A stretch of 64,000 bases of DNA from Thermoanaerobaculia bacterium (GTDB taxonomy: Bacteria; Acidobacteriota; Thermoanaerobaculia; Gp7-AA8): the NCBI GenBank assembly GCA_035516895.1, contig DATIZY010000017.1:3472-67471 (forward strand), given 5' to 3'. A program made the translations under genes and the position numbers. Position 1 is the stretch's first letter, and the number at the start of each line of letters is the position of its first letter. Of the stretch, positions 3,989 through 58,799 are shown in pieces. The notes below the pieces were generated by a model, which saw nothing but the letters and a program-made list of their open reading frames with translations, had not been told where the DNA came from and did no database searches.

Positions 3989-5302
3989 CTAGCGCGAGGA
4001 CGCGGCTGTGACCTTCGCCGTCGCACGCGCGAGATCGGCCACCGACGCCGCGCGATTCGGCGTCCGCAGCAGCGATGCGTTGAATTGCTCGATCGCGTCG
4101 CTCGTCCTGCCGTCCTGCAGGAGCAGCTCTCCGTAGAGCTCGTGCGCCGGCTTGAAATTCTCGGGCGGGCCCGACGGCACGCCGAGCGTCTCCTCCGCGG
4201 CAACGGCGAGCTCTGCCTGGTGCAGCGCATCGTTGAGGTTCCCGCGAGCCGCGTCGAGGAGCGCCGTCGCTTCGAGGCGATCCGTTTCCGATTCGATCTG
4301 CGGCAGCGATTTCCCGGCGTCGTCGAGCCGCTTGCCGGCGATCGACTGCAGCGTTTTGCCGAGCGGCTCGTCGAACGTGAAGCTGTCCCAATCGCCGGTC
4401 TCGACCGCGTATCGCACCTTCATCGTCTCCTTCGGCCGGCCGGTCGCCTCGTCGATGAGCTTCTTCGCTTCGGCGTAGCGGTGCATCTGCAGATCGGCGT
4501 ACTCGAGCCACGAGAGGCTGTGCATGTCGGGCTGCTTCCACTGTTTCGACAGCGCGAATGCGGCCTGATTCGATCGCGCGGTCTCTTCCCACATCCCGAG
4601 CTGCAGAAAGATGTGCGACGGCATGTGCAGCGCGTGCGGCGCCGACGAAGCCACGTTCGCGTAGCGGCGCGCGGCGCGAAGCCCGAGCGGCGCAAGAATT
4701 GGATCGTCATACGCGTGGATCATGTAGTGCAGCACGCCGGGATGATCGGGGTGCGACGGCAGCAGGTCCTCGAGGATCGCCGCCGCGCGGATCGATCTCC
4801 GCTCGTCGCGCTGATGCCATTCGCGTGCGCCGAGGATCGAGAGGGCCCAGAAGGTCTGCGCTTCGACATCCGCCGGAAACGCGCGCGCGAGCCGCTCCAT
4901 CGCCGCTTCGTACGCTTCGTTGCGCTGCTGCCTCTCGCCGCGGCCGTACAGCGCTTCGACCGCTTCGATGTAGCCGCGCTCGCGCGGAGTGGCGGAGGCG
5001 GCGAGCGGAATCATCTCCTGGACGACGCGCCGGCCGCCCTCGATGTCCTGCTGGTTCCAGAGCGGATGGTTGTACGTCATGGCCTCGCCCCAGTAAGCGA
5101 GGGCGAACTTCGGATCGACCTTCTGCGCCTCGCGGAACGCCTCGGCCGCCTGCGGATACGCGAAGTTGTGCAGGAGCAGCACGCCCCGGAGAAACGCCGG
5201 CTGTGCTTCCGGCGTGCCCGAGTTCGGGAAAACGATCGTGCCGAGGTGGTTCTGAGCGTGCGCGGCGGCGGCGAGGAGAGCGATCAGGAAGAATTTCCGC
5301 AT
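3989..5302 (-). CDS. Secreted TPR-like repeat protein
   Basis: Signal peptide MRKFFLIALLAAAAHAQ. Helical repeat-like segments (AEAFREAQKVDPKFALAYWGEAMTY...) consistent with a TPR-like fold. Confidence 0.5.
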   Translation of the reverse strand: MRKFFLIALLAAAAHAQNHLGTIVFPNSGTPEAQPAFLRGVLLLHNFAYPQAAEAFREAQKVDPKFALAYWGEAMTYNHPLWNQQDIEGGRRVVQEMIPLAASATPRERGYIEAVEALYGRGERQQRNEAYEAAMERLARAFPADVEAQTFWALSILGAREWHQRDERRSIRAAAILEDLLPSHPDHPGVLHYMIHAYDDPILAPLGLRAARRYANVASSAPHALHMPSHIFLQLGMWEETARSNQAAFALSKQWKQPDMHSLSWLEYADLQMHRYAEAKKLIDEATGRPKETMKVRYAVETGDWDSFTFDEPLGKTLQSIAGKRLDDAGKSLPQIESETDRLEATALLDAARGNLNDALHQAELAVAAEETLGVPSGPPENFKPAHELYGELLLQDGRTSDAIEQFNASLLRTPNRAASVADLARATAKVTAASSR

Positions 5303-5330
5303 GTCTGCATCTTATTCGCCGTGAGCCTTT

Positions 5331-5446
5331 TTTGAATTTCGAATTTCGAATTTCGAATTTCGAATTTCGAATTGAGAATGACGAATCGGCGATCTCTTCA
5401 TTCTTCATTCTGCATTCTTCATTCGAAATTCGAAATCCGAAATTCA
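5331..5446. repeat. Composite inverted tandem-repeat element: (GAATTTC)x5 tandem at 5334..5368, a 47-nt spacer rich in GAATGA/TCATTC, then inverted (GAAATYC)x3 at 5425..5445
   Basis: Read directly from the sequence. The two arms are reverse complements and could form a long hairpin/cruciform. Located in the divergent intergenic region between the minus-strand gene starting at 5302 and the plus-strand gene starting at 5464. Confidence 0.8.
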
Positions 5447-5463
5447 ATTAGACTCCTCCCGGC

Positions 5464-6171
5464 ATGAGAGTCCGCACCGGCACGAGCGGCTACAGCTACA
5501 AGGAATGGAAAGGCAGCTTTTATCCAGAAGATTTACCAGCAAATAAAATGCTGCAATATTATTCCGGCCGCTTCGAGACCGTCGAAATCAACAACACGTT
5601 CTATCGAATGCCGGACACGAAGATGCTCGCGAAATGGAGCGAACAGGTACCGCCATCGTTCACGTTCGTTCTGAAAGCGCCGCAGCGGATCACGCATCAG
5701 AGGAGACTCGCCGGCGCGGAGGAGGACGTCCGCCAGCTCTTCGACGTCGCCACCGCCCTCGGTCCGCAGCTCGGTCCGGTGCTGTTTCAGCTGCCGCCGT
5801 TCGCGCGCAAAGATGCTGCGAAGCTCCGCGATTTTCTCGGCATTCTTCCGCCGAAGGCGCAGGTGGCATTCGAGTTTCGCCACGACTCATGGTGCGATGA
5901 TGAGATCGACTCGATCCTGCGGGCGCGCGATGTGCCGATGTGCCTTTCCGACACCGACGAGGTCGCCGATCCGAACGCGCTCGTGATTCCGACGGCGTCG
6001 TGGGGCTATTTGCGGCTGCGGCGCACGGAGTACGACGATCGCGCGCTCGACGACTGGGCGCGGCGCGTCGAGGCGCAGCCGTGGCGCGAGGCCTACGTCT
6101 TCTTCAAGCACGAGGACGAAGCGAAAGGGCCGCTCTTTGCCGAACGGTTTCGCCGCAGAATCAGTGCCTAG
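5464..6171 (+). CDS. DUF72 (YecE/UPF0759) family protein
   Basis: N-terminal RTGTSGYSYKEWKGSFYP is the hallmark of DUF72. 235 aa. Confidence 0.8.
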   Translation: MRVRTGTSGYSYKEWKGSFYPEDLPANKMLQYYSGRFETVEINNTFYRMPDTKMLAKWSEQVPPSFTFVLKAPQRITHQRRLAGAEEDVRQLFDVATALGPQLGPVLFQLPPFARKDAAKLRDFLGILPPKAQVAFEFRHDSWCDDEIDSILRARDVPMCLSDTDEVADPNALVIPTASWGYLRLRRTEYDDRALDDWARRVEAQPWREAYVFFKHEDEAKGPLFAERFRRRISA

Positions 6172-6174
6172 TGC

Positions 6175-6873
6175 CTAGGCACTGACGTGTTCGCGAATGA
6201 AGTCGATCGTGCGGCGGATGATCGCCCGCGAGCGGTCGTCATCATTCAAAAGATCGAAGCCGTGCTCGCCGTTCGGATGGGCCATCACTTCGAGCTCGAT
6301 GTTTCGTGTGAGCGCTTCGCTGATGAATGCATCCACCGACGCGTTCAGCGCCTGGTGATCCTTGCCGGCGCGTGCGATCAGCATCGGCGGACAGTGCGCA
6401 CCGCTGCGCAGGCGCTCGAGCGGTGACGCGAGGATCGCGTAGTACGAAACGAGCGCGCGCACGTTCGGCTGATCGAAGCCGAAACTGAGGAAGGGACCGC
6501 CGCCGGAAAATGCCCAGAAGATCAGCCGCTCGGCATCGACCTCCGGCTGCACGCATGCGAACTCGATCGCCTCTTCGACGTCCTTCGTCGCTTGCGCGAT
6601 CGCGCTGCCGAAGAAGCGATGATTGAACGTCATCGCGGCGAAGCCGGACGAGGCCGCGAGCGCGCCGTAATCGCGGAACAGCTGCATGTTCTTCGGCTGG
6701 GCGCCGTCGGGCACCGGACCGCCGTGAATGAAAATGATCGCGGCATTCGGCCGGTCGTCCGGCGCGTAAACGTCGGCGAGGACGCCCGGCGCGTATTCGA
6801 TGTCGCTGCGGACGCGAATGCGGGTTTGCGGCGGACGCAACACCAGCGGCTTCGTTGCAATGGACTCCGGCAT
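6175..6873 (-). CDS. Alpha/beta-hydrolase fold esterase/lipase
   Basis: HGG oxyanion motif (IFIHGGP), nucleophile elbow FSGGG (GxSxG variant), and a conserved acidic/His region near the C-terminus. The start is ambiguous: Met at 6879 or 6873. Confidence 0.65.
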   Translation of the reverse strand: MPESIATKPLVLRPPQTRIRVRSDIEYAPGVLADVYAPDDRPNAAIIFIHGGPVPDGAQPKNMQLFRDYGALAASSGFAAMTFNHRFFGSAIAQATKDVEEAIEFACVQPEVDAERLIFWAFSGGGPFLSFGFDQPNVRALVSYYAILASPLERLRSGAHCPPMLIARAGKDHQALNASVDAFISEALTRNIELEVMAHPNGEHGFDLLNDDDRSRAIIRRTIDFIREHVSA

Positions 6874-9678: not shown

Positions 9679-11070
9679 TCATGGACGCGGGGGCAAAACG
9701 ATGGCCCTTTCTTCGCTCGTTTCAATGACTTCCGTCTTATTGCCGATGCCGTGAACTCGCCAGCGGGCCGCCTTCCTGATCCTGCCGCGTGGGAGGAGAT
9801 CGATGTCGGGCCGGACCATCGGGAACGAGGTCTTCGGCGTCTGCGCGGCGAAGAGCACGCTGCCTGTGTCATCGAGAATTTCGAAGACGAAAAACGACGC
9901 GGCGCCCGGCTGAGACTCGTGCCACGAGAACGCGAGCTGACCGGCGAGCGTCACGCCGTCGAACGGCGCGTCGGGGATGATCGTCGGCCCCGTCGGTGCG
10001 GGGCCGAGGAGGATCGCTCCGGGACCGCTGTTCGATGCTGAGGCTGTCGATGCGACCGCGGCCACCGGGCCGCGTGCTGCAGTCAATGAGACAAGCACGT
10101 CGACGGTTGCTTCGGTCGGCGACGTGAACAGCGGCGTGCCGACGATCGTCACGTCTTTGCCGAATGTGATCGTCGTCTCCGATGAAAAGTTCTTGCCGAT
10201 GAGGTGAAGTGTGTATCGCTGGCCGGCCTGCAGCTTCGAGGGAGAGATGACATCGATGCGCGGCCCGATCACCATCTCGGTCGGACGCACCGGCTGCGGC
10301 ACTTCCGGTTGCGGCACGGGCACCGGTTCGGGCTGCGGTGCGGGTGGGGGCGGCGTGATGCGACTGCCAGCCGCTTCGCCGGATGGTTGCGGCTGTGGCT
10401 GCGGCTGCGGCTGTGGAACGGGAGCGGGCTGCGGCTGTGGCTGCGTGCCGGGGAGTTTTCCTGCCGTCGGTTCGCCGGTCGGCTGCGGAACCGGAGTCGG
10501 CTGCGGAACCGGAACAGGCTTTGGCTCTGGAGGAGGTTGCGGCGTCGGAACGGGCGCCGGTTGCGGCTGAGGAACAGGCGTGGGTTGTGGCTGCGGCTGC
10601 GGTTGCGGTTGCGGTTGTGGTTGTGGTTGTGGTTGCGGCTGCGGCTGCGGTTGTGGTTGTGGCTGTGGCTGTGGTTGTGGTTGCGGCTGCGGTTGCGGTT
10701 GTGGCTGCGGTTGCGGCTGTGGTTGTGGCTGCGGCTGCGGGTTCACGGTGAACGCATTCGCAACGCGCACCGGCGTCGGCGCGGCAGCCGTCGCCACGGG
10801 CGTGTAGACGAATGTGTACGCGCTCGTTGGCGCCGTCGGCGAGATCTGAATCGTGAATTGCAGGAACCTGTTCGGATTGCGCGGATTGGAAACGGCGATT
10901 TTGCCCGCTGGTTCGAACGAGATCCCGCCGCCCGGTGGCCACGTCACGTTTGTCGTGATGTCGAGAGTCTCGCCCTGGATGCCGCTGGACGGCGTGAGCG
11001 CGACCTTCGGAAGGGCGACCGACGCCGCGATGAGCAGCGCGCCGAGGGCGACGAAGAAGAGACGCTTCAT
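9679..11070 (-). CDS. Secreted PQ-repeat surface protein: two globular domains joined by a (PQ)n / Pro-rich linker
   Basis: Signal peptide MKRLFFVALGALLIAASVA. About 26 perfect PQ dipeptide repeats flanked by PxP-rich sequence, and a C-terminal beta-rich domain. The start ATG overlaps the stop of the upstream giant gene (ATGA), implying translational coupling. Confidence 0.6.
   Translation of the reverse strand: MKRLFFVALGALLIAASVALPKVALTPSSGIQGETLDITTNVTWPPGGGISFEPAGKIAVSNPRNPNRFLQFTIQISPTAPTSAYTFVYTPVATAAAPTPVRVANAFTVNPQPQPQPQPQPQPQPQPQPQPQPQPQPQPQPQPQPQPQPQPQPQPQPQPQPQPTPVPQPQPAPVPTPQPPPEPKPVPVPQPTPVPQPTGEPTAGKLPGTQPQPQPAPVPQPQPQPQPQPSGEAAGSRITPPPPAPQPEPVPVPQPEVPQPVRPTEMVIGPRIDVISPSKLQAGQRYTLHLIGKNFSSETTITFGKDVTIVGTPLFTSPTEATVDVLVSLTAARGPVAAVASTASASNSGPGAILLGPAPTGPTIIPDAPFDGVTLAGQLAFSWHESQPGAASFFVFEILDDTGSVLFAAQTPKTSFPMVRPDIDLLPRGRIRKAARWRVHGIGNKTEVIETSEERAIVLPPRP
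10584..10741. repeat. Perfect hexanucleotide microsatellite (GGYTGY)n of ~26 units, encoding (PQ)26 on the minus strand
   Basis: Directly visible as ggttgtggctgcggctgcggttgcggttgcggttgtggttgtgg... Degenerate copies extend upstream to ~10300. Confidence 0.85.
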
Positions 11071-14000
11071 TGGCTCACCGCGGACGTCGTCGAAGGATTG
11101 TTCGTCTTGGTTGCGTTGATGCTCGCCGGCACGGCGACCACCGTCGTTCCGTTCATCGCCTGGCCGCTGCTCGCGCCCCAGTTGAACGACATGGTCCCGA
11201 CGTATTGGTGAATGAACTTCGGCGGCGGGATCTGCCCTGTGGAGCTGCTGCGGTTCGCGTCGGCTGAGAACTGCAGGGACAAGTGCTGCGTGAGGCGCTG
11301 CGGCGTCCATGTGACGAGCGCCTGGTAATCCTCGCTGCGCGACTCCAGGTTCGTCAGGTCATTTTTCGAACGGCTGAAATTGACGCGGGGCTGCAGCATG
11401 ATTCCCCAGTTTGGGAGCGTCCAGCTCGGCTGCAGTGACGCGAGATACTGATCCGTGGTCCCGACGGCGGAGCTGCCCGCCGTACGCGTGCCCGACAGCA
11501 CAGCCGACAGATTGAGGTACGGCGTCGGAGTGCCGCCGAAGGTCAGCGTCGCCGCGCTCGTGGTCGAGTCGGAGATCGGTGTGATGCGATCGTGAAGTTT
11601 CTGCACCGTCATGGTCTGCGACAAATTGAAGATCCCGATCGCCTCGGTCACCGTGCCGTTGGCTCCCGATTGGGTGCGATCGAGATCCGGCAGTCCGTAG
11701 CTGGGATTGCCCGAGCCGCGATCGGCCGTCCAGTTCCCGCCTAACGCGAGCGTCGTTCGCTGGCCGATGGAGGTCGTGACCGCCAGGACTCCGCCATTTT
11801 CGCGATTGCGCGGAAGGATCGCGCCCGACGAGTTGCCGTCGCGGAGCGTTCGCAGCTGCAGCGAGAGCGACGTGCGATTGATGACCTTGGTCAGCGAGAG
11901 ATTCGCGCCCGTTCGATCGGGAACGCCGCCGGGTGTGAGTGCGCGGTTCGCCGGATTGACGTAGTCCGCCTCGGTTCGCCGCAGATTGAGCACATATGCG
12001 AACGTTCCCCAGTTGCCGGTCGCGTCGAGCCGCAGCGCGCTGCCCTCGTGTTTCGGTCCGACGGTGGTGGGGTTCGGGTCGAAGCCGCCGTGCGATCCTT
12101 CGAAGATCAGCGTCAGCTTCGGATCGAAGATGTACTTCGCGAAGACGCCGAACGCTTTGCCGACTCCGCCGGCGGAGTTCGGGCCGGCGTCGTCCGTGAC
12201 GCGGAAACCCATCAGCCGGAAGTCCCACTTGTCGTTCGGCTCGGTCTGCAGGGCCGCGGCGCGGATGATCGTCTTCGGACCGAAGTCTCCCGCGAGAACG
12301 CCGGCCGGCTTTGTGCCGAAGGTCTCATATCCCGAGGCGATCATGTGGAAGAGGTGGAGGCGGCCTTCGACGCCGCCGCGCGCGACGCCTGTCGCGAGCA
12401 GCTCCGACTGATCGAGAAAATCGGGCGCGGCGTAACCGATCTTCGCTTCCGGCTGCACGAGGCCCTGCTGCCGCGTGAAATCAGTCAGCCAGTTGCGGCT
12501 CTCCTGCACGGTCTTGTTCGGGTCGGCGAGATCGTGGCGCACCGACATGTCGCCGGTGACTTTCGCTCCCTTGGCGTTCTCGGCGAGGTCGGTTTGCGCG
12601 GAGAACTGCGTGCGCGCGGCATTCGGCTGTCCCGGCGCATCGCCGCCGGCGGCGGTGATCGTGCCGTTCGGCGTCACCGCCCAATCTTTTTGCAGCGATG
12701 GCGCGGCAGGCTGCGCCGCTTCGGGAGCGACCTCCACGTCGAAGCTCCACGTCGTGACCGCGCCCGCGAGCGACAGCCGGACCGAGTGCGTGCCGTTTGC
12801 GAGCGGCAGGAGCGAGTCGTAGTTGATCGAAGCCGCGTCGATTTTCGAGACATTCGTGACGTCGGTCTGATCGAGAGTCATCGCGACGTCCTGCGCTTTC
12901 ACCGTGCCGCTCCATGTCGCGCTGATGTGCGGCTGGTTCGTTGCGACTTTCGATCCGTCCGCCGGCTGCTGATTCGTGACGGCGGGCTTCTGCTGCACGA
13001 GAGCGATCGGCTGCTTCGCGGGCGCGCGCCCGACGTTCGCCGTCGGCGATGCGCCTAACACAACGCCGCCGGGCCCGATCGCCGTCACACGGACGGACGT
13101 GCCGCCGACGCCCGGCGGAATCGCGAAGTCGCTGGCTGCGGTGAGCGCCGAATAGACGACGTTGCCGGCGGCATCGAGCACGTCCACGCGGTACAGCAGC
13201 CCGCTGACGCCGCCGCGCCAGCGCACGTGCCGCTGCTGCACGGTCGCGGTGAGATCGACGTGCTGCGGCACGATCGCGAAGCGCTGCCACTCCGTCGGCT
13301 CGCTTTCGGTTTCGCCGGCGAACACGGCACGGACGCGCCAGCGATGAATGCCCGGCCCGATCTCCTGCAGCGTCCGGGCGCTCGGCTTCCATTGCGCGTC
13401 CGACAGCCGGAAGCGGCGCGGCAGGAGATCGTTGTCGATCTCCACGACGTAGCCGCTGCTGTTCGGAACGAGCGACCAGCGGAACAGCGGCGACGCGCTT
13501 CCGATCACCATGCCGTCGCGCGGCGCGAGCAGCGTCAGGCGCGAGACGCTGTTCGGCGCCATCAGCACGTGCAGCGAAGGTGCGGCGGCGAATTGCGGCG
13601 ACTCGATCTGCAGCTCGAGCGTGTGCGCGCCCTCGTACGAGATCGGCAGCGGCAGATGCGTGCGGACTTCGGCCGGATATCCGCCGCCGACGTTCACCGT
13701 GAATCGATCGAACGGCACGCCGTCGAACTTCCAGACGCCGATGATCGTGCCCGTTCCGGTCGTGGCCAGCAGGCCGCGGGGAAAGACGTTTTGCGACGGC
13801 GCGATCATCGTTCCTTCCGCCGGGAAAACGATCGCCGCGGTCGTGACGCCGAGGGGCGCGGCGATCGAGCCGCGCGGGTAGACGAGAAGCGTCGCGGTTG
13901 CGCTGCCGCCGTCGGGATTCGTCAGCATCAGCGTCGTCGCTCCCGGCGGCGCCTCGGCGATGACGCTCATCGTCACATCGGCGATTTCCGGCGTGATGAC

Positions 14001-21274: not shown

Positions 21275-21769
21275 GTGGACGATCGCGACCTCTGCTACGC
21301 ATCGAGTCTGCGGATCCTGAAGTATCGCTTCAACAGCACGGCCGAGCTGCGGCGGAAGCTGCGGTCGAAAGGTTTCGATCGCGAAACGATCGAAGCGACG
21401 CTCGCGCGTTTGCGCGAGGAGAAGTGGCTCGACGACGCGCGCTTTGCCGCTGCGTTCGTCCGCACGCAGGCGCTCAAGCGCAAGGGGCGGCGGCGCATCC
21501 GCCGCGAGCTGATGGGAGCGGGCGTCGACGACGCGACGATTGCGAACGCCGTCGCGGAGAATGTCGATGCCGAGGGCGAGCGCGAGCGCGCGGCGGCGGC
21601 GGCGCAAAAGCGGCTGCCGATTCTCGCCAGACGCTACGGGTCGGAGGACGTGCGAAACAAATTGCGCGCGTATTTGTTGAAGCAGGGTTACGAAGCGTCA
21701 CTCGTATACGATGTGGTCGCTGATTTGATCAAGCGAGCGGCGAGCGGCGAGCAGCGAGCGGACGATTGA
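21275..21769 (+). CDS. recX: RecX regulatory protein
   Basis: Three-repeat helical architecture with AELRRKLRSKGF, EEKWLDDARFAAAFVR and RKGRRRIRRELMGAGV motifs. Lies immediately upstream of alaS, a conserved arrangement. Confidence 0.75.
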   Translation: MDDRDLCYASSLRILKYRFNSTAELRRKLRSKGFDRETIEATLARLREEKWLDDARFAAAFVRTQALKRKGRRRIRRELMGAGVDDATIANAVAENVDAEGERERAAAAAQKRLPILARRYGSEDVRNKLRAYLLKQGYEASLVYDVVADLIKRAASGEQRADD

Positions 21770-21811
21770 ACACCGCTTGCCGCTCGCCGGCCGCCCCTCG
21801 CCGGAGGCACG

Positions 21812-52781: not shown

Positions 52782-52838
52782 CGAGAAAAGCTACTTATTT
52801 TAGATGAATTTCCGTCAAAAGCGCCGCTGCGGCGGCGC

Positions 52839-52890
52839 GTTGTCAGTTGTCAGCGGGAGGCTGCCGGCGGCGGGATTGACAACTGACAAC
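52839..52890. repeat. Palindromic element GTTGTCAGTTGTCAG, a 22-nt GC-rich spacer, then TTGACAACTGACAAC (14/15 match)
   Basis: Read directly from the sequence. It abuts the TAG stop of the M50 protease gene and sits upstream of the sensor gene start. The same heptamer motif recurs at 54756..54807. Confidence 0.75.
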
Positions 52891-53579
52891 TAGTCTTCCG
52901 GGCGATTGTACGACCGGAAGAACTGCCACTGCTGATAGCTGGACCAGACAAACCACGCCATCAGCAGAGCGATGAAAGGCTGGCGCAGGAACATGCTGAC
53001 AATGGTCAGCAGCGCGCCGACGATCATCGAGAGCCAGATCGAGATCAGAAACGAGGTCCGTTCGCTCGCGAAGAGCCGCAGAAAATGCCGGACCATCGCG
53101 TAGCCGTCGAGGGGCGCTACGGGCAGTAGATTGAAGAATCCCCACAGAATGTTCGCCTCCGCAAGGAGCGGCAGAAGCGCGGCAAAGAACGGGTCCTGCG
53201 ACATCCGCGGAAACGACACGATCACGATGCGAAGCAGAAACGCGAGCAGAAAGCTCGAGCACGGCCCGGCCGCGCTGATCAGCAGGTCCTGCCACGGTCG
53301 CGCGCGCCGCTCGTTCATCGTCACGCCGCCGATGCCCTGCAGCATGATGCGGCTCGGCCCGAAGCCGAACGCGCCGATCACTGCCGCGTGCGCGAGCTCG
53401 TGAAAAAGCACGCTGATGACGATGACCGGAATCCACAGCAGCGCGTATTTCATGCCGCCCGCGCCGCCGACATCGCTCATCACCCAGAAGGCGAGGAGGA
53501 TGAGGAAGCTGAAGTCGAGATCGATCGTCGTGCCCAGGATCGAGCCGAGGTGAATGCGCCCCACGGTTGCGTAGGTTAC
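52890..53579 (-). CDS. Site-2 protease family (M50) membrane metalloprotease
   Basis: HELAHA zinc-binding motif within a transmembrane helix, a downstream LDG motif (NLLPVAPLDG), multiple transmembrane helices. The start is uncertain (GTG); the upstream ORF part is Arg-rich. Confidence 0.65.
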   Translation of the reverse strand, partial: VTYATVGRIHLGSILGTTIDLDFSFLILLAFWVMSDVGGAGGMKYALLWIPVIVISVLFHELAHAAVIGAFGFGPSRIMLQGIGGVTMNERRARPWQDLLISAAGPCSSFLLAFLLRIVIVSFPRMSQDPFFAALLPLLAEANILWGFFNLLPVAPLDGYAMVRHFLRLFASERTSFLISIWLSMIVGALLTIVSMFLRQPFIALLMAWFVWSSYQQWQFFRSYNRPED

Positions 53580-53635
53580 GCGAAAAGTTCGCCGTTCGCC
53601 GATGTCGCGAACTGCGAACCCGATATGCTTTCCGC

Positions 53636-54757
53636 ATGAAGTTCGAGACGAAAGCCGTGCACGTCGGCGGCAAACCCGATGAATCGACGGGCGCGATCGC
53701 GCCTCCGATCGAGCTCTCGACGACGTTCGAGCGGAGCGGCAAAGACGGCGAACCGGCACACGGTTACAGCTACATCCGCGATCACAATCCAACGCAGACG
53801 CGTCTCGAAGCGGCGCTCGCGGCGATCGATTCGGCCGAGGCGGCGCTGGTGTTCAGCTCGGGGATGTCGGCGGTGTCGGCGCTCTTTCAATCGCTGCCGC
53901 CCGGCTCGCACGTTCTTCTGCCGGGCGACGGCTACTACGCCGTGCGGATCCTCGCGAACGATTTTTTCCCACGCTGGGGGCTCACGCACGATCTCGTGTC
54001 GCTCACCGATGTCGACGCCGTGCGCAAAGCGATCCGCAAGGAAACGCGCGCGATCTGGTGCGAGTCGCCGTCGAATCCGATGATGCACATCTGCGACATC
54101 GCCGCGCTCGCCGACGTCGCCCATCGCGCGAACGCGATTCTCATCGCCGACGATACCTTCGCAACGCCCGCGCTGCAGCGTGCGATCGAGCTCGGCGCCG
54201 ACCTCGTCATGCACTCGACCACCAAATACCTCGGCGGCCACAGCGACGTGCAGGGCGGCTCGCTCGCGTTCCGGCGCCGCGACGAGCGGTTCGAGAAGGT
54301 CGAGCATGTGCGCACGATCGTCGGCGGCGTCGCGTCGCCATTCAATTCGTGGCTCGTGCTGCGCGGCATTCGCAGCCTCGCTCCGCGCATGCGCCTGCAT
54401 TGCGAGAACGCGGGCGCCGTCGCGGAGTTTCTGGCGAAGCATCCGCGCGTCGAGGCGGTGCACTATCCCGGCCTCGCGTCGCATCCGGGCCACGCGATCG
54501 CCGCCCGTCAGATGTCCGACTTCGGCGGGATGATGTCCTTCCGCGTGAAGGGCGGGCGGGAGGAAGCGCTGACGGTGACCGCGAAGGTGAAGGTGTTCAC
54601 GCGCGCGACGTCGCTCGGAGGGGTCGAAAGCCTCATCGAGCATCGCGCGTCGAGCGAAGGGCCGGCTTCCCGCACACCGCCGAACCTGCTTCGGATGTCG
54701 ATCGGCCTCGAGCACAGGGACGACCTCATCGCCGACCTCGATCAGGCGCTAGAATAG
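53636..54757 (+). CDS. Cys/Met-metabolism PLP-dependent enzyme (cystathionine gamma-synthase / beta-lyase / O-succinylhomoserine sulfhydrylase family)
   Basis: SGMSAV, DDTFATP, and HSTTKYLGGHSD with the PLP lysine. 373 aa. Confidence 0.85.
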   Translation: MKFETKAVHVGGKPDESTGAIAPPIELSTTFERSGKDGEPAHGYSYIRDHNPTQTRLEAALAAIDSAEAALVFSSGMSAVSALFQSLPPGSHVLLPGDGYYAVRILANDFFPRWGLTHDLVSLTDVDAVRKAIRKETRAIWCESPSNPMMHICDIAALADVAHRANAILIADDTFATPALQRAIELGADLVMHSTTKYLGGHSDVQGGSLAFRRRDERFEKVEHVRTIVGGVASPFNSWLVLRGIRSLAPRMRLHCENAGAVAEFLAKHPRVEAVHYPGLASHPGHAIAARQMSDFGGMMSFRVKGGREEALTVTAKVKVFTRATSLGGVESLIEHRASSEGPASRTPPNLLRMSIGLEHRDDLIADLDQALE

Positions 54758-54807
54758 TTGTCAGTTTTCAGTTGTCAGTTGTCAGAGAAAGCGATCGACA
54801 ACTGACA
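54756..54807. repeat. Second copy of the TTGTCAG-heptamer palindrome: (TTGTCAG)x3.5, then a 13-nt loop, then GACAACTGACA
   Basis: Read directly from the sequence, immediately after the TAG stop of the PLP-enzyme gene and before the small zinc-ribbon ORF. Confidence 0.75.
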
Positions 54808-54819
54808 CCGAACGACTCC

Positions 54820-57751: not shown

Positions 57752-58795
57752 GGGGTCAGAGCTGTACTTGTGATTTTTCTACGATGCGTAGAGTGCCGAA
57801 AGTGCCGAGGTACTCTCGGTCGCTATGTCACGACCGCTTCGACTCGAATTTCCCGGCTCCGTTCACCACGTCACCTCTCGCGGCAATGCGCGTCAATGCA
57901 TCTTCTTCGACGACGCCGATCGCGAATGCTTTCTCGATCTGCTCGGCACTGCGGTCAAACGTTTCGACTGGATCGTGACCGCGTACGTGCTGATGTCGAA
58001 TCATTTTCATTTCGTCGCTCAACTGACGGATGAGAATCTCTCGCGCGGCATGCAGTGGCTGAACGCGCAATACGCGGCGGCGTTCAATCGCGATCATGGC
58101 CGCTCCGGACATGTGCTCCAGGGACGGCCTGACATCCGGCTCATCGATCACGAAACGTACGCGCTCGAGGTGCTGCGCTACGTTGTGCTGAATCCGGTTC
58201 GCGCGCGCATGGTCCGTAAGCCGGAGTACTACGAGTGGAGCAGCCATCGCGCGGTGCTCGGGGTCGCGACGGCTCCGGAGTGGCTGGCGGTCGACGACGT
58301 GCTTATGCAGTTCGGATCGGAGCGCGACCTCGCTCGCGCCGCCTATCGCGAGTTCGTCGATGCGGCGATCGGATCGACGGAATCGCCCTGGGCGAACCTC
58401 GTCGGACAGATGTACCTCGGCAGTGAAGGGTGGATGCAGCGCGTGCGCGAACGCGTCGATCTGAAGCCGCGCTCTTCCGATCATCGGCGATCGCAGCGGT
58501 TCCTTCCATCGGCAACCATGGCAGAGATCATCCGGCGCGTGGCCGAAGCCTTTTCGATCGAGGAGACCCAGATCCGTTTTGGACGCGGCGGTCTGGCGCG
58601 GACCGTTGCGGCCTGGGTCGCCTGGCACGAGGGTCAGCTCACGGCGACCGAGATTGCTGCCGGCCTTCGGTTTCGCTGTGCGGGTTATGTCGCTCGGCTC
58701 GTACGGCGCTGTGAGCGGGAGCTGACGCGCGATGCCAGGCTTCAGCAGATCGTCTCTACGATTTGTAGAAAAATCACAAGTACAGCTCTGACCCC
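57752..58795 (+). mobile_element. 1044-bp element bounded by ~42-bp terminal inverted repeats (GGGGTCAGAGCTGTACTTGTGATTTTTCTAC...TAGAG) carrying a REP-associated tyrosine transposase-like gene
   Basis: Left IR 57752..57793 and right IR 58754..58795 are reverse complements: 31 nt perfect, a 6-nt mismatch block, then 5 nt perfect. A possible TAGT direct repeat flanks both ends. Confidence 0.65.
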
Positions 58796-58799
58796 CTAG
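57825..58799 (+). CDS. REP-associated tyrosine transposase-like protein (HuH Y1 transposase domain plus C-terminal DnaA-like HTH)
   Basis: Matches the RAYT-like family: HHVTSRGNARQCIF, the HuH motif region YVLMSNHFHFV, and GHVLQGR ... YVVLNPVRA. The C-terminal ~90 aa resemble the DnaA C-terminal helix-turn-helix. The last codons lie inside the right inverted repeat. Confidence 0.75.
   Translation: MSRPLRLEFPGSVHHVTSRGNARQCIFFDDADRECFLDLLGTAVKRFDWIVTAYVLMSNHFHFVAQLTDENLSRGMQWLNAQYAAAFNRDHGRSGHVLQGRPDIRLIDHETYALEVLRYVVLNPVRARMVRKPEYYEWSSHRAVLGVATAPEWLAVDDVLMQFGSERDLARAAYREFVDAAIGSTESPWANLVGQMYLGSEGWMQRVRERVDLKPRSSDHRRSQRFLPSATMAEIIRRVAEAFSIEETQIRFGRGGLARTVAAWVAWHEGQLTATEIAAGLRFRCAGYVARLVRRCERELTRDARLQQIVSTICRKITSTALTP

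Follow-up and report, generated by a model that had tools for sequence, protein, structure and literature searches.

The heptamer palindrome between the DUF72 gene and its divergent neighbour

We analysed a stretch of 64,000 nucleotides (hereafter the window) from a member of the acidobacterial class Thermoanaerobaculia (GenBank assembly GCA_035516895.1, contig DATIZY010000017.1), with a focus on an array of heptanucleotide repeats that separates two divergent genes. The left gene (3989..5302, minus strand) encodes a 437-aa protein with a signal-peptide-like N-terminus, as judged by eye, and a weak similarity to TPR proteins; its relatives come from metagenome-assembled genomes (MAGs) of Acidobacteriota, class Thermoanaerobaculia, the best genome match being 68% identical. 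The right gene (5464..6171, plus strand) encodes a YecE-like member of the DUF72 family (PF01904, Pfam E = 1.9e-60). An earlier interpretation, made from the letters and the translated open reading frames of the window (hereafter the sequence-only reading), had placed the array between divergent genes starting at 5302 and 5464, and had called their products a secreted TPR-like protein and a DUF72 protein. The arrangement, the start positions and the DUF72 assignment are borne out, whereas the TPR matches are sub-threshold (TPR_2, 23.5 bits against a cut-off of 27).

The two genes are separated by 161 nt, most of which is filled by the element (5332..5447; strandless), an imperfect palindrome of 116 nt made of 16 heptads, eight in each arm, with TT and AA at its ends. 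The 5' arm (5334..5389, plus strand) contains five GAATTTC units followed by GAATTGA, GAATGAC and GAATCGG, every unit beginning with GAAT. The 3' arm (5390..5445, plus strand) reads CGATCTC, TTCATTC, TTCATTC, TGCATTC, TTCATTC, GAAATTC, GAAATCC and GAAATTC, and its units end in ATTC or ATCC, with the exception of the first one. The exact period-7 run extends over 5334-5373, with the five perfect GAATTTC copies at 5334-5368, and the three terminal units GAAATTC, GAAATCC and GAAATTC occupy 5425-5445; both series had been reported correctly by the sequence-only reading. The 47-nt spacer that it had described between them is a real interval, but one of 56 nt (5369-5424), and not a separate spacer: the last three units of the 5' arm and the first five of the 3' arm, which make it up, keep the 7-nt register. 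Tandem Repeats Finder reports a repeat of period 7 with 6.3 copies and 97% matches at 5330-5373, and further period-7 rows at 5395-5424 and 5421-5445. With at least three head-to-tail copies of a 7-nt unit, the element belongs to the heptanucleotide simple-sequence repeats (SSRs) of the kind represented by short tandemly repeated repetitive (STRR) sequences.

The best inverted repeat pairs 5332-5384 with 5395-5447, i.e. two arms of 53 nt that are 81% complementary and separated by a gap of 10 nt. The calculated RNA folding energy is -49.7 kcal/mol for the plus strand (z = -5.1) and -61.4 kcal/mol for the minus strand (z = -6.6), and the DNA fold has -31.2 kcal/mol (z = -5.3), each relative to 200 shuffled sequences, none of which folded as well. 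According to these models, the element is capable of folding into a hairpin on either strand or of extruding a cruciform, in agreement with the complementary arms and the long hairpin or cruciform proposed previously. It is sharply AT-rich, as had been pointed out, with a GC content of 34%, against a background that amounts to 64.8% in the window rather than ~68%.

The 14-mer GAATTTCGAATTTC, with up to two mismatches allowed, has 11 matches in the window, all within the element, compared to 0.36 expected. The hexamer TTCGAA occurs in the element seven times with a 7-bp spacing. Restriction-site avoidance was considered in this connection and rejected, as TTCGAA is not depleted outside the element (16 copies found versus 6.5 expected). 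An additional GAATTTC (GAAATTC on the gene strand) is present at 5291-5297, 8 nt inside the open reading frame of the 437-aa protein, where it forms codons 2-4 (R-K-F); orthologues keep CAAATTC or CAAACTT at this place, and this copy may be there by chance or may pair with the array.

The possibility that the element is an intrinsic terminator was rejected: no terminator-like site was detected in it, its stem is rich in A and T, the T-run of the plus strand comes before the stem rather than after it, and both flanking genes point away from it. The consensus scan finds neither a terminator nor a promoter consensus inside the element, and Rfam gives 0 matches in the whole window at the curated gathering scores.

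Strain alleles differ by whole heptamers

An exact look-up of the DUF72 protein of the window gave no match, and alleles of the site were reached via the neighbouring protein and cluster representatives (fetched loci are referred to below by L numbers). Among strains with flanks that are 99.4-99.9% identical, we found three alleles with whole-heptamer differences. The window allele has five GAATTTC units and a spacer of 161 nt, and the allele of L234 (ERZ27256617) is the same minus one GAATTTC, which leaves a spacer of 154 nt. The third allele, common to L233, L001 (ERZ27256514) and L002 (JGI 3300032892), has four GAATTTC units, one extra TGCATTC, TTCATTC-to-TGCATTC conversions and a GAAATCC-to-GAAATTC change, and its spacer is again 161 nt long. 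The window and L001 differ by 11 substitutions in ~7.2 kb of flank (0.15%), and by two 7-nt indels and 2-3 substitutions inside the 116-nt element. In seven strain-to-window alignments (~31 kb aligned, overlaps included) every indel is a 7-nt unit within a heptamer array. At other arrays, L152 carries one extra GTTGTCA at 52839 (three units), together with a T-to-C change by which the other arm has gained in regularity, and L088 has one GAATTTC more than L003 and L080. Copy number varies by whole units between strains at the element and at two other arrays, in the manner of slippage-prone SSR and STRR loci, and the slipped-strand behaviour suggested by the sequence-only reading is upheld by this comparison of near-identical strains.

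Inversion of the centre of the palindrome was considered as the source of the two 161-nt alleles and rejected, as the orientation of the centre is the same in both; moreover, the existence of the 154-nt allele means that the total length is not fixed, which also argues against such a flip.

The element is an addition to an ancestrally short spacer

The divergent DUF72/437-aa pair is syntenic in ~35 loci, and the counts given here refer to the 16 distinct orthologous loci in which both start codons were placed. The spacer has 18-26 nt and no array in 14 of them. Counted from the start codon of the 437-aa gene, a TAnnnT box begins at -12 to -14 in all 16 loci, and it is a perfect TATAAT in 13; in most related Thermoanaerobaculia TATAAT lies 6-8 nt before the start codon, and where the DUF72 strand was read (for example in L003), a TATAGT-like box precedes the start of DUF72 by the same distance. 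Many Thermoanaerobaculia possess in this way a compressed divergent promoter of ~20 nt, CAC/CAT-GGCGTCAC-TATAAT-CGCGCC-ATG (e.g. L003:3128-3147 and L004:9981-10000). A spacer of ~20 nt has no room for a leader, so that both mRNAs are most likely leaderless or nearly so. Judged from these orthologues, the spacer is ancestrally ~20 nt long.

The window retains a -10-like box, TAAGAT (5309..5314, minus strand), at the position of the orthologous TATAAT and outside the hairpin; 6 nt separate it from the start codon of the 437-aa gene, and it is the putative promoter of a leaderless 437-aa mRNA. Since TAAGAT is kept outside the hairpin and at the same distance from the ATG, the hairpin represents an addition of ~140 nt between two back-to-back core promoters. 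A -35-like TTCAAA (5331..5336, minus strand), 16 nt upstream of TAAGAT, is formed by the outermost repeat unit and an A-run; it is a possible -35 hexamer, with the AT-rich repeats in the position of an UP element, and the consensus promoter scan at its thresholds reports no promoter at TTCAAA/TAAGAT. The array occupies a divergent promoter spacer, with the -10 box and the start codon outside it and their mutual spacing kept among alleles and lineages.

The element is confined to one small clade, in which sister lineages have other units and copy numbers at the same site. In L236 (DUF72 89% identical), a spacer of 97 nt contains AAAGTTC GAAGTTC / GAACTTC GAACTCC GAACTTC adjoining a TAAGAT box, while in L239 (DUF72 85% identical) the spacer of 191 nt contains (GAAGTTC)3 (GAATTAA)3 GAATTGC, a loop, and CTCATTC TTCATTC (GAACTTC)6 GAACTTT GAAATTC. 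The common unit is an odd palindrome, GAA-N-TTC, whose centre in the 5' arm is T in the window and G in L236 and L239, and in the 3' arm A or C. The centre pair T:A of the window has therefore become G:C in L236 and L239, which makes it a compensated change. Since GAA pairs with TTC, a direct array of GAA-N-TTC is already nearly self-complementary, and a change of the centre base in half of such an array gives two arms.

The same spacer has been expanded independently elsewhere, by 78 nt of other sequence in L101, and L078 contains in it an unrelated palindrome of 116 nt (GTGTCATCCTGAGC...GAAGGATCTC), which its near-twin L076 does not have at this place. We found no target-site duplication or duplicated flank in the comparison of filled and empty sites. 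A miniature inverted-repeat transposable element or another small mobile insertion is not supported by these data, as there is no duplicated flank and no further copy in the window or in the fetched loci, and as a neighbouring site shows a series from a single unit through an array to a hairpin. Likewise, a conserved operator is not supported, with 14 of the 16 orthologous spacers devoid of the array and a unit that differs in the sister lineages.

Period-7 hairpins form a generic intergenic class

The element is one of six intergenic period-7 hairpins in the 64-kb window, i.e. the arrays are non-coding and several in number. A small hairpin at 6160..6185 (AGTGCCT AGTGCCT AGGCACT) lies where DUF72 and the following gene converge, at their stop codons. 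The hairpin at 21733..21803 consists of four GCGAGCG units followed by CCGCTYG-type units between two plus-strand genes, its left arm overlapping the end of the upstream open reading frame, and that at 52838..52892 of two GTTGTCA and two TGACAAC units between two minus-strand genes. At 53586..53621, two GTTCGCC units and GCGAACT GCGAACC are located in a divergent spacer, 15 nt before the start of a Cys/Met-metabolism gene, and at 54755..54810 four GTTGTCA units and GACAACTGACA separate the stop codon of this Cys/Met-metabolism gene from the ATG of the next one, which encodes 95 aa. These five hairpins are likewise strandless; their units are unrelated to GAATTTC, and the gene junctions are divergent, convergent or co-directional. 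In a syntenic sister species (L163/L164) the spacers have only 48, 23 and 9 nt at the sites of the window hairpins 52838, 53586 and 54755, respectively.

Directly after the 52838-52892 hairpin there is a classical intrinsic terminator (52817-52838, minus strand; GCGCCGCCGCAGCGGCGC followed by TTTT), and beyond it a promoter-like TTGACG-N17-TAAAAT of a gene for a 1270-aa PAS/GAF protein. As this terminator is separate, the heptamer hairpin itself is not the terminator. The hairpin and this terminator are both absent from L163.

For a count of the class, Tandem Repeats Finder was run on the window and 151 fetched loci (~1.5 Mb), and an inverted array at most 150 nt away was taken as a partner. 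Arrays with an inverted partner made up 1 of 9 at period 5, 4 of 92 at period 6, 35 of 140 at period 7, 6 of 82 at period 8 and 4 of 235 at period 9, with none at periods 10 and 11. When near-pure G/C units are left out, 22 of the 72 heptamer arrays have a partner, versus 1.7% at random 300-nt positions in the same loci. Heptamer hairpins of relatives have units of the AAATTTC type (L003, L080 and L088), GTTGCGC (L010), GAATGTT (L020), GTTCTTA (L091), GTTGTCA (twice, L107), GTCAGGC (L159), AGGACTG (L161) and, in a Nitrospirales MAG (L024), AAATYCG. They are located at gene starts, at gene ends and in intercistronic gaps, and the adjoining genes may again diverge, converge or run in the same direction. 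The 3' end of DUF72 contains one AAATTTC in L074, three direct copies in L077 and full hairpins in L003, L075 and L088, a series that looks like growth in place.

No further GAATTTC array was detected in the window or in the non-orthologous fetched loci, and in the fetched loci GAATTTCGAATTTC is limited to the orthologous site in L001, L002 and L072, which belong to the same strain group, and to a single occurrence in the AAATTTC-type hairpin of L088. The sequence-only reading had stated that it would fail if the array proved to be a generic dispersed repeat with no promoter association, or invariant in copy number with transcription starts outside it. This has come true in part: the type of repeat is generic, dispersed and not associated with promoters, but the exact GAATTTC array is not dispersed and its copy number is variable.

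Hexamer tandem repeats at 10384-10740 (GGTTGC/GGCTGC, up to 26 copies) are unrelated to the heptamer class. They lie inside a minus-strand open reading frame (9679-11310), in which they encode a long (PQ)n/(PX)n linker, and the product has a hydrophobic signal-like segment.

Arm polarity and strand asymmetry

The heptamer hairpins follow a polarity, with a G/T-rich arm at the 5' side and an A/C-rich arm at the 3' side on both strands. It is obeyed at the locus in all three lineages and, as read from the sequences by eye, by 12 of the 14 elements of the window and its relatives. In four of the five lineages and alleles, the RNA that has the sense of the 437-aa gene gains 2.5-11.7 kcal/mol over the opposite strand on folding, and in L236 both strands fold equally well. 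The greater stability of the 437-aa-sense RNA is due to G.U pairs, and this asymmetry may reflect either chance or selection. A sense-strand bias of folding as evidence of an RNA function for the whole class was rejected, since three co-directional elements of the window fold slightly better in antisense.

The unit GTTGTCA could be followed in a larger dataset. Three tandem copies of it are found in 63 viral or proviral loci of IMG/VR (L170-L232), which fall into two GC classes. In contigs with at least 55% GC, 15 of the 31 distinct arrays of at least three GTTGTCA units have an inverted partner downstream and two of the 31 upstream, as opposed to none of 12 with any inverted partner in contigs with less than 45% GC (cyanobacteria-like). 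In the high-GC class, (GTTGTCA)3 is usually followed by an inverted (TGACAAC)n arm, and the loops often begin with AGTGAA or AGAGAA. (GAATTTC)3 has three matches in IMG/VR, all to one low-GC phage-like sequence present on three contigs, which contains a direct array only and is unrelated to the element. Heptamer units known from several phyla repeatedly contain a CTGA/TCAG core.

The RAYT-like gene and other dispersed palindromes

The window contains a RAYT-like gene (57825..58799, plus strand), whose product scores 66 bits with the NCBIfam model of the REP-associated tyrosine transposase (cut-off 80, E = 3e-18; REP, repetitive extragenic palindrome) and 25.5 bits with Pfam Y1_Tnp (cut-off 23), and has a weak DnaA-C-like C-terminal region. 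The gene is flanked by a perfect inverted repeat of 31 nt, GGGGTCAGAGCTGTACTTGTGATTTTTCTAC, at 57752-57782 and 58765-58795. More than 5,700 matching proteins are found at E <= 1e-10, and the named organisms among the best 120 are Thermoanaerobaculia or Acidobacteriota. The RAYT-like clusters appear to be single-copy, and two conserved gene neighbourhoods account for the loci examined. A repeat of this kind is also present on both sides in all four distinct homologous loci that were inspected; its GGGGTCAG.GC and TTTTTCTAC ends are conserved, whereas the middle is variable, though within each pair the two copies match there. The 31-nt repeat has no other copy in any fetched locus and no similarity to the element. 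Membership of the element in a REP/REPIN-RAYT system (REPIN, REP doublet forming a hairpin) was rejected: it is not a many-copy palindrome within the 64 kb, and it does not match the RAYT-flanking repeat.

Two further kinds of palindromes were encountered in relatives. A gene-less, near-perfect hairpin of 90 nt, GGGGTCAGGTC TTCACTT TTCACTT TCTTATT..., is present in L009 (3635-3725) and L012 (4166-4255) and looks like a doublet of the RAYT-flanking repeat without the gene; between the two loci three double compensatory changes keep the stem, with TTCACTT/AAGTGAA turned into TTCAGTT/AACTGAA and TCCAGTT/AACTGGA. A dispersed palindrome of ~90-116 nt, GTGTCATCCTGAGC..GGCGAAGGATCTC.. with its reverse complement, occurs at L078:2277-2395, L076:1690-1780, L078:1481-1570 and L091:2225-2320, where it accounts for the insertion of L078 into the divergent spacer of ~20 nt mentioned above and, in L091, sits inside the loop of a heptamer hairpin.

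Origin and possible functions of the element

We consider it probable, on balance, that the element is a slippage-driven, hypermutable heptanucleotide-repeat palindrome, one representative of a generic intergenic class, and that it reshaped the promoter incidentally. The structure of the element, its restriction to one clade, the 7-nt polymorphism and the generic nature of the class are matters of observation. Such an element would have grown in place by replication slippage, in steps of 7 nt, from a short self-complementary seed. Its arms would have stayed complementary owing to the self-pairing of GAA and TTC, with the centre base fixed by hairpin-templated (quasi-palindrome) correction or by selection, and it would have no dedicated sequence-specific partner. 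As by-products of this growth, the two back-to-back leaderless promoters would have been pushed ~135-170 bp apart, the retained TAAGAT of the 437-aa gene would have been supplied with AT-rich -35/UP-like DNA, and cruciform-prone DNA would have come to lie between divergent transcription units; gain and loss of units may slightly tune expression.

Several points weigh against this interpretation. The hypermutability of the site is gauged from the three alleles that were recovered, and we infer, rather than observe, both the neutrality of the element and its effects on the promoters. The element persists at one site across DUF72 identities of 85-89% and its arm polarity is constant, which could mean selection or active maintenance rather than slippage alone, and the better fold of the 437-aa-sense RNA could hint at a role at the RNA level.

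The repeat lies between two start codons and overlaps the presumed -35/UP region of the TAAGAT promoter, natural populations contain three length or sequence alleles, and the element persists at its site in three lineages. Together with published precedents (PMC8262952, PMC12721329, 10.1101/2021.05.14.444153), these facts would speak for a selected contingency or tuning locus, in which 7-nt changes would switch or grade the 437-aa protein, DUF72 or both, via promoter geometry or a hairpin in the 5' untranslated region (5'-UTR). We regard this as rather unlikely, since similar arrays with similar 7-nt polymorphism are found at gene 3' ends and intercistronic sites, where there is no promoter logic, and since the flanking genes are not obvious targets of phase variation in a soil bacterium. 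Furthermore, the array does not include the -10 box, whose distance from the ATG is constant, and therefore changes in unit number leave the -10/-35 spacing unaltered. It is quite unlikely that the element acts in cis as RNA, be it a 5'-UTR or antisense insulator, a determinant of RNase III processing or stability, or a modulator of translation in which the G/U-rich 5' arm masks the A/C-rich 3' arm near the start codon. Going by the conserved -10 box, the 437-aa mRNA would start downstream of the hairpin, the antisense bias of the three co-directional window elements and the lack of an Rfam match in the window point in the same direction, and the primary sequence is not conserved outside the clade. 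An RNA role would be in keeping with the fixed polarity, by which the A/C-rich arm adjoins downstream start codons, with the greater stability of the 437-aa-sense strand in the four lineages or alleles mentioned above, the window among them, and with the post-transcriptional role that MacGregor (2015) argued for heptamer repeats just upstream of start codons. A broader view, to which we give a low probability, somewhat below that of a contingency locus, is that heptamer hairpins constitute an actively maintained, structured class in high-GC soil bacteria including Thermoanaerobaculia, by virtue of either an RNA-level function (e.g. masking of an unstructured A/C-rich leader) or a dedicated processing of DNA, for instance by the RAYT-like Y1 transposase, which is conserved and syntenic. 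The fixed polarity, the compensated changes of the arms and the long persistence at the site would fit active maintenance, and the flanking repeats of the RAYT-like gene share the GTCAG motif with some heptamer units.

That the element itself is REP- or REPIN-like, and was created, moved or maintained by the RAYT-like transposase of the window (57825-58799), seems improbable. Such a link is suggested by the very presence of the gene, by the inverted repeats that flank it and all four of its homologous loci, by the gene-less hairpin of L009 and L012, which resembles the flanking repeat and contains a tandem heptamer, and by the start of the L159 heptamer hairpin, which shares 11 of 14 bases with the repeat that flanks the RAYT gene of the same genome. 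However, the GAATTTC element has no sequence in common with the repeat at the RAYT-like gene (GGGGTCAG...TTTTTCTAC), the window contains just one copy of the element, and none is present in the other, non-orthologous sequence that was fetched from relatives. Heptamer hairpins also differ from a REPIN family in that their units are unrelated from one site to the next. In addition, filled and empty sites differ by no target-site duplication, the series from seed to array argues for growth in place, and the protein scores under the curated NCBIfam cut-off of 80. Arrayed sites for a dedicated dimeric regulator, as proposed in the sequence-only reading, are not supported by the findings: the element is absent from most orthologous spacers, its unit changes between sisters, and its architecture is generic elsewhere. 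We hold it very improbable that the array is an operator at which a dimer recognizes GAA-N-TTC or the TTCGAA palindrome of the unit junctions. The GAA and TTC triplets are kept while the centre base varies between lineages, TTCGAA recurs every 7 bp, and heptameric direct repeats do serve as operators for SARP regulators and for ToxT/H-NS; nevertheless, the conservation of GAA and TTC is equally explained by self-complementarity, a 7-bp spacing sets successive sites on different faces of the helix, and no regulator gene adjoins the element. Nor is there any sign of a regulon, as neither the window nor the remaining fetched loci contain a second GAATTTC array. Finally, short-read assemblers can collapse or mis-join tandem repeats, but an assembly artefact of a low-complexity region can practically be dismissed, as four further samples (ENA ERZ27256514 and ERZ27256617, JGI 3300032892 and Logan SRR8881010) recover the element with identical flanks and with whole-unit differences only.

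We conclude that the element is ordinary in kind, i.e. a heptanucleotide SSR, and a variant in architecture, i.e. a polar palindromic array, in an unstudied phylum, and that it is not evidence for a specific regulator. The locus described here offers an unusually clean natural series, with an empty ancestral site of ~20 nt, short and long versions in sister lineages and three alleles that differ by single units between strains, and it shows that in an uncultured acidobacterial class heptamer repeats are organised as hairpins with a fixed arm polarity. If polarity or persistence reflects a function, these hairpins would be a widespread, unstudied layer of intergenic structure. If they do not, the hairpins would be useful for tracing how replication slips and how palindromes change, and would warn against taking every repeat close to a promoter for the site of a regulator.

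Related repeats and mechanisms in other bacteria

Since 1990, heptanucleotide repeats have been a known feature of cyanobacteria. According to Mrazek et al. (2007), as cited in PMC4679880, they are the most abundant class of long simple-sequence repeats in many bacteria. The cyanobacterial STRR sequences resemble the arrays described here in their head-to-tail 7-nt units, their intergenic location, their many sites per genome and their proneness to slippage. One of them, csR1.1 of Nostoc PCC 7120 (ttgtcagttgtcagttgtca, 44 copies), has exactly the GTTGTCA unit of the window elements 52838 and 54755 (PMC2408588). The differences are that the arrays in our host, an acidobacterium, form inverted, hairpin-forming pairs with a fixed polarity, which in IMG/VR are limited to high-GC contigs (15/31 vs 0/12), and that the GAA-N-TTC unit is private to one clade. 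In marine Beggiatoaceae, cyanobacteria and Bacteroidetes, MacGregor (2015, PMC4679880) described TAACTGA direct repeats, with 169 direct sets and one indirect repeat; the sets have 2-6 copies, are intergenic and often situated just upstream of start codons, and their function is unknown, a translational role having been proposed. CAACTGA, the reverse complement of the GTTGTCA of the window in another register, is one base off this unit. Whereas TAACTGA is one dominant unit, in our data units vary by site, inverted pairing is common and there is no bias towards start codons. The polarity rule is not described in the cited papers on cyanobacteria and Beggiatoaceae, and our literature search found no paper on heptamer repeats in Acidobacteria. 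The hairpin organisation in high-GC lineages, the fixed polarity and the strand-biased folding seem to be new.

The closest published architecture is that of Geobacter metallireducens, where tandem heptamers are paired on opposite strands in intergenic regions: its class 3 global regulator binding sites consist of five tandem MTYCTGA units and include eight opposite-strand pairs (Aklujkar 2009, PMC2700814). These sites share one consensus at 16 places and were read as IHF/HU-type sites without a test, in contrast to the many units, the strain polymorphism and the clade restriction reported here. Repeats of 7 bp upstream of hmw1A and hmw2A of H. influenzae and the TTTTGAT heptads of the V. cholerae ctxAB promoter (PMC8262952, PMC12721329, 10.1101/2021.05.14.444153) are similar as 7-nt SSRs in promoter or 5' regions with copy numbers that differ between strains. 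However, their copies all run in the same direction and their influence on expression has been measured; for ctxAB the binding proteins are known as well. Our element, by contrast, is palindromic and lies outside the interval from the -10 box to the start codon.

With the REP/REPIN-RAYT systems the arrays have in common that they are intergenic imperfect palindromes, and that the window contains a RAYT-like gene with flanking inverted repeats; the REPINs of one genome share one sequence, however, and the heptamer hairpins do not. Quasi-palindrome template-switch mutagenesis, which is established in E. coli, is a mutational mechanism and not a family of elements. Template switching of this kind would fit both the compensated change of the centre pair from T:A to G:C between the lineages of our element and the T-to-C change by which the opposite arm of the GTTGTCA array in L152 has become more regular.

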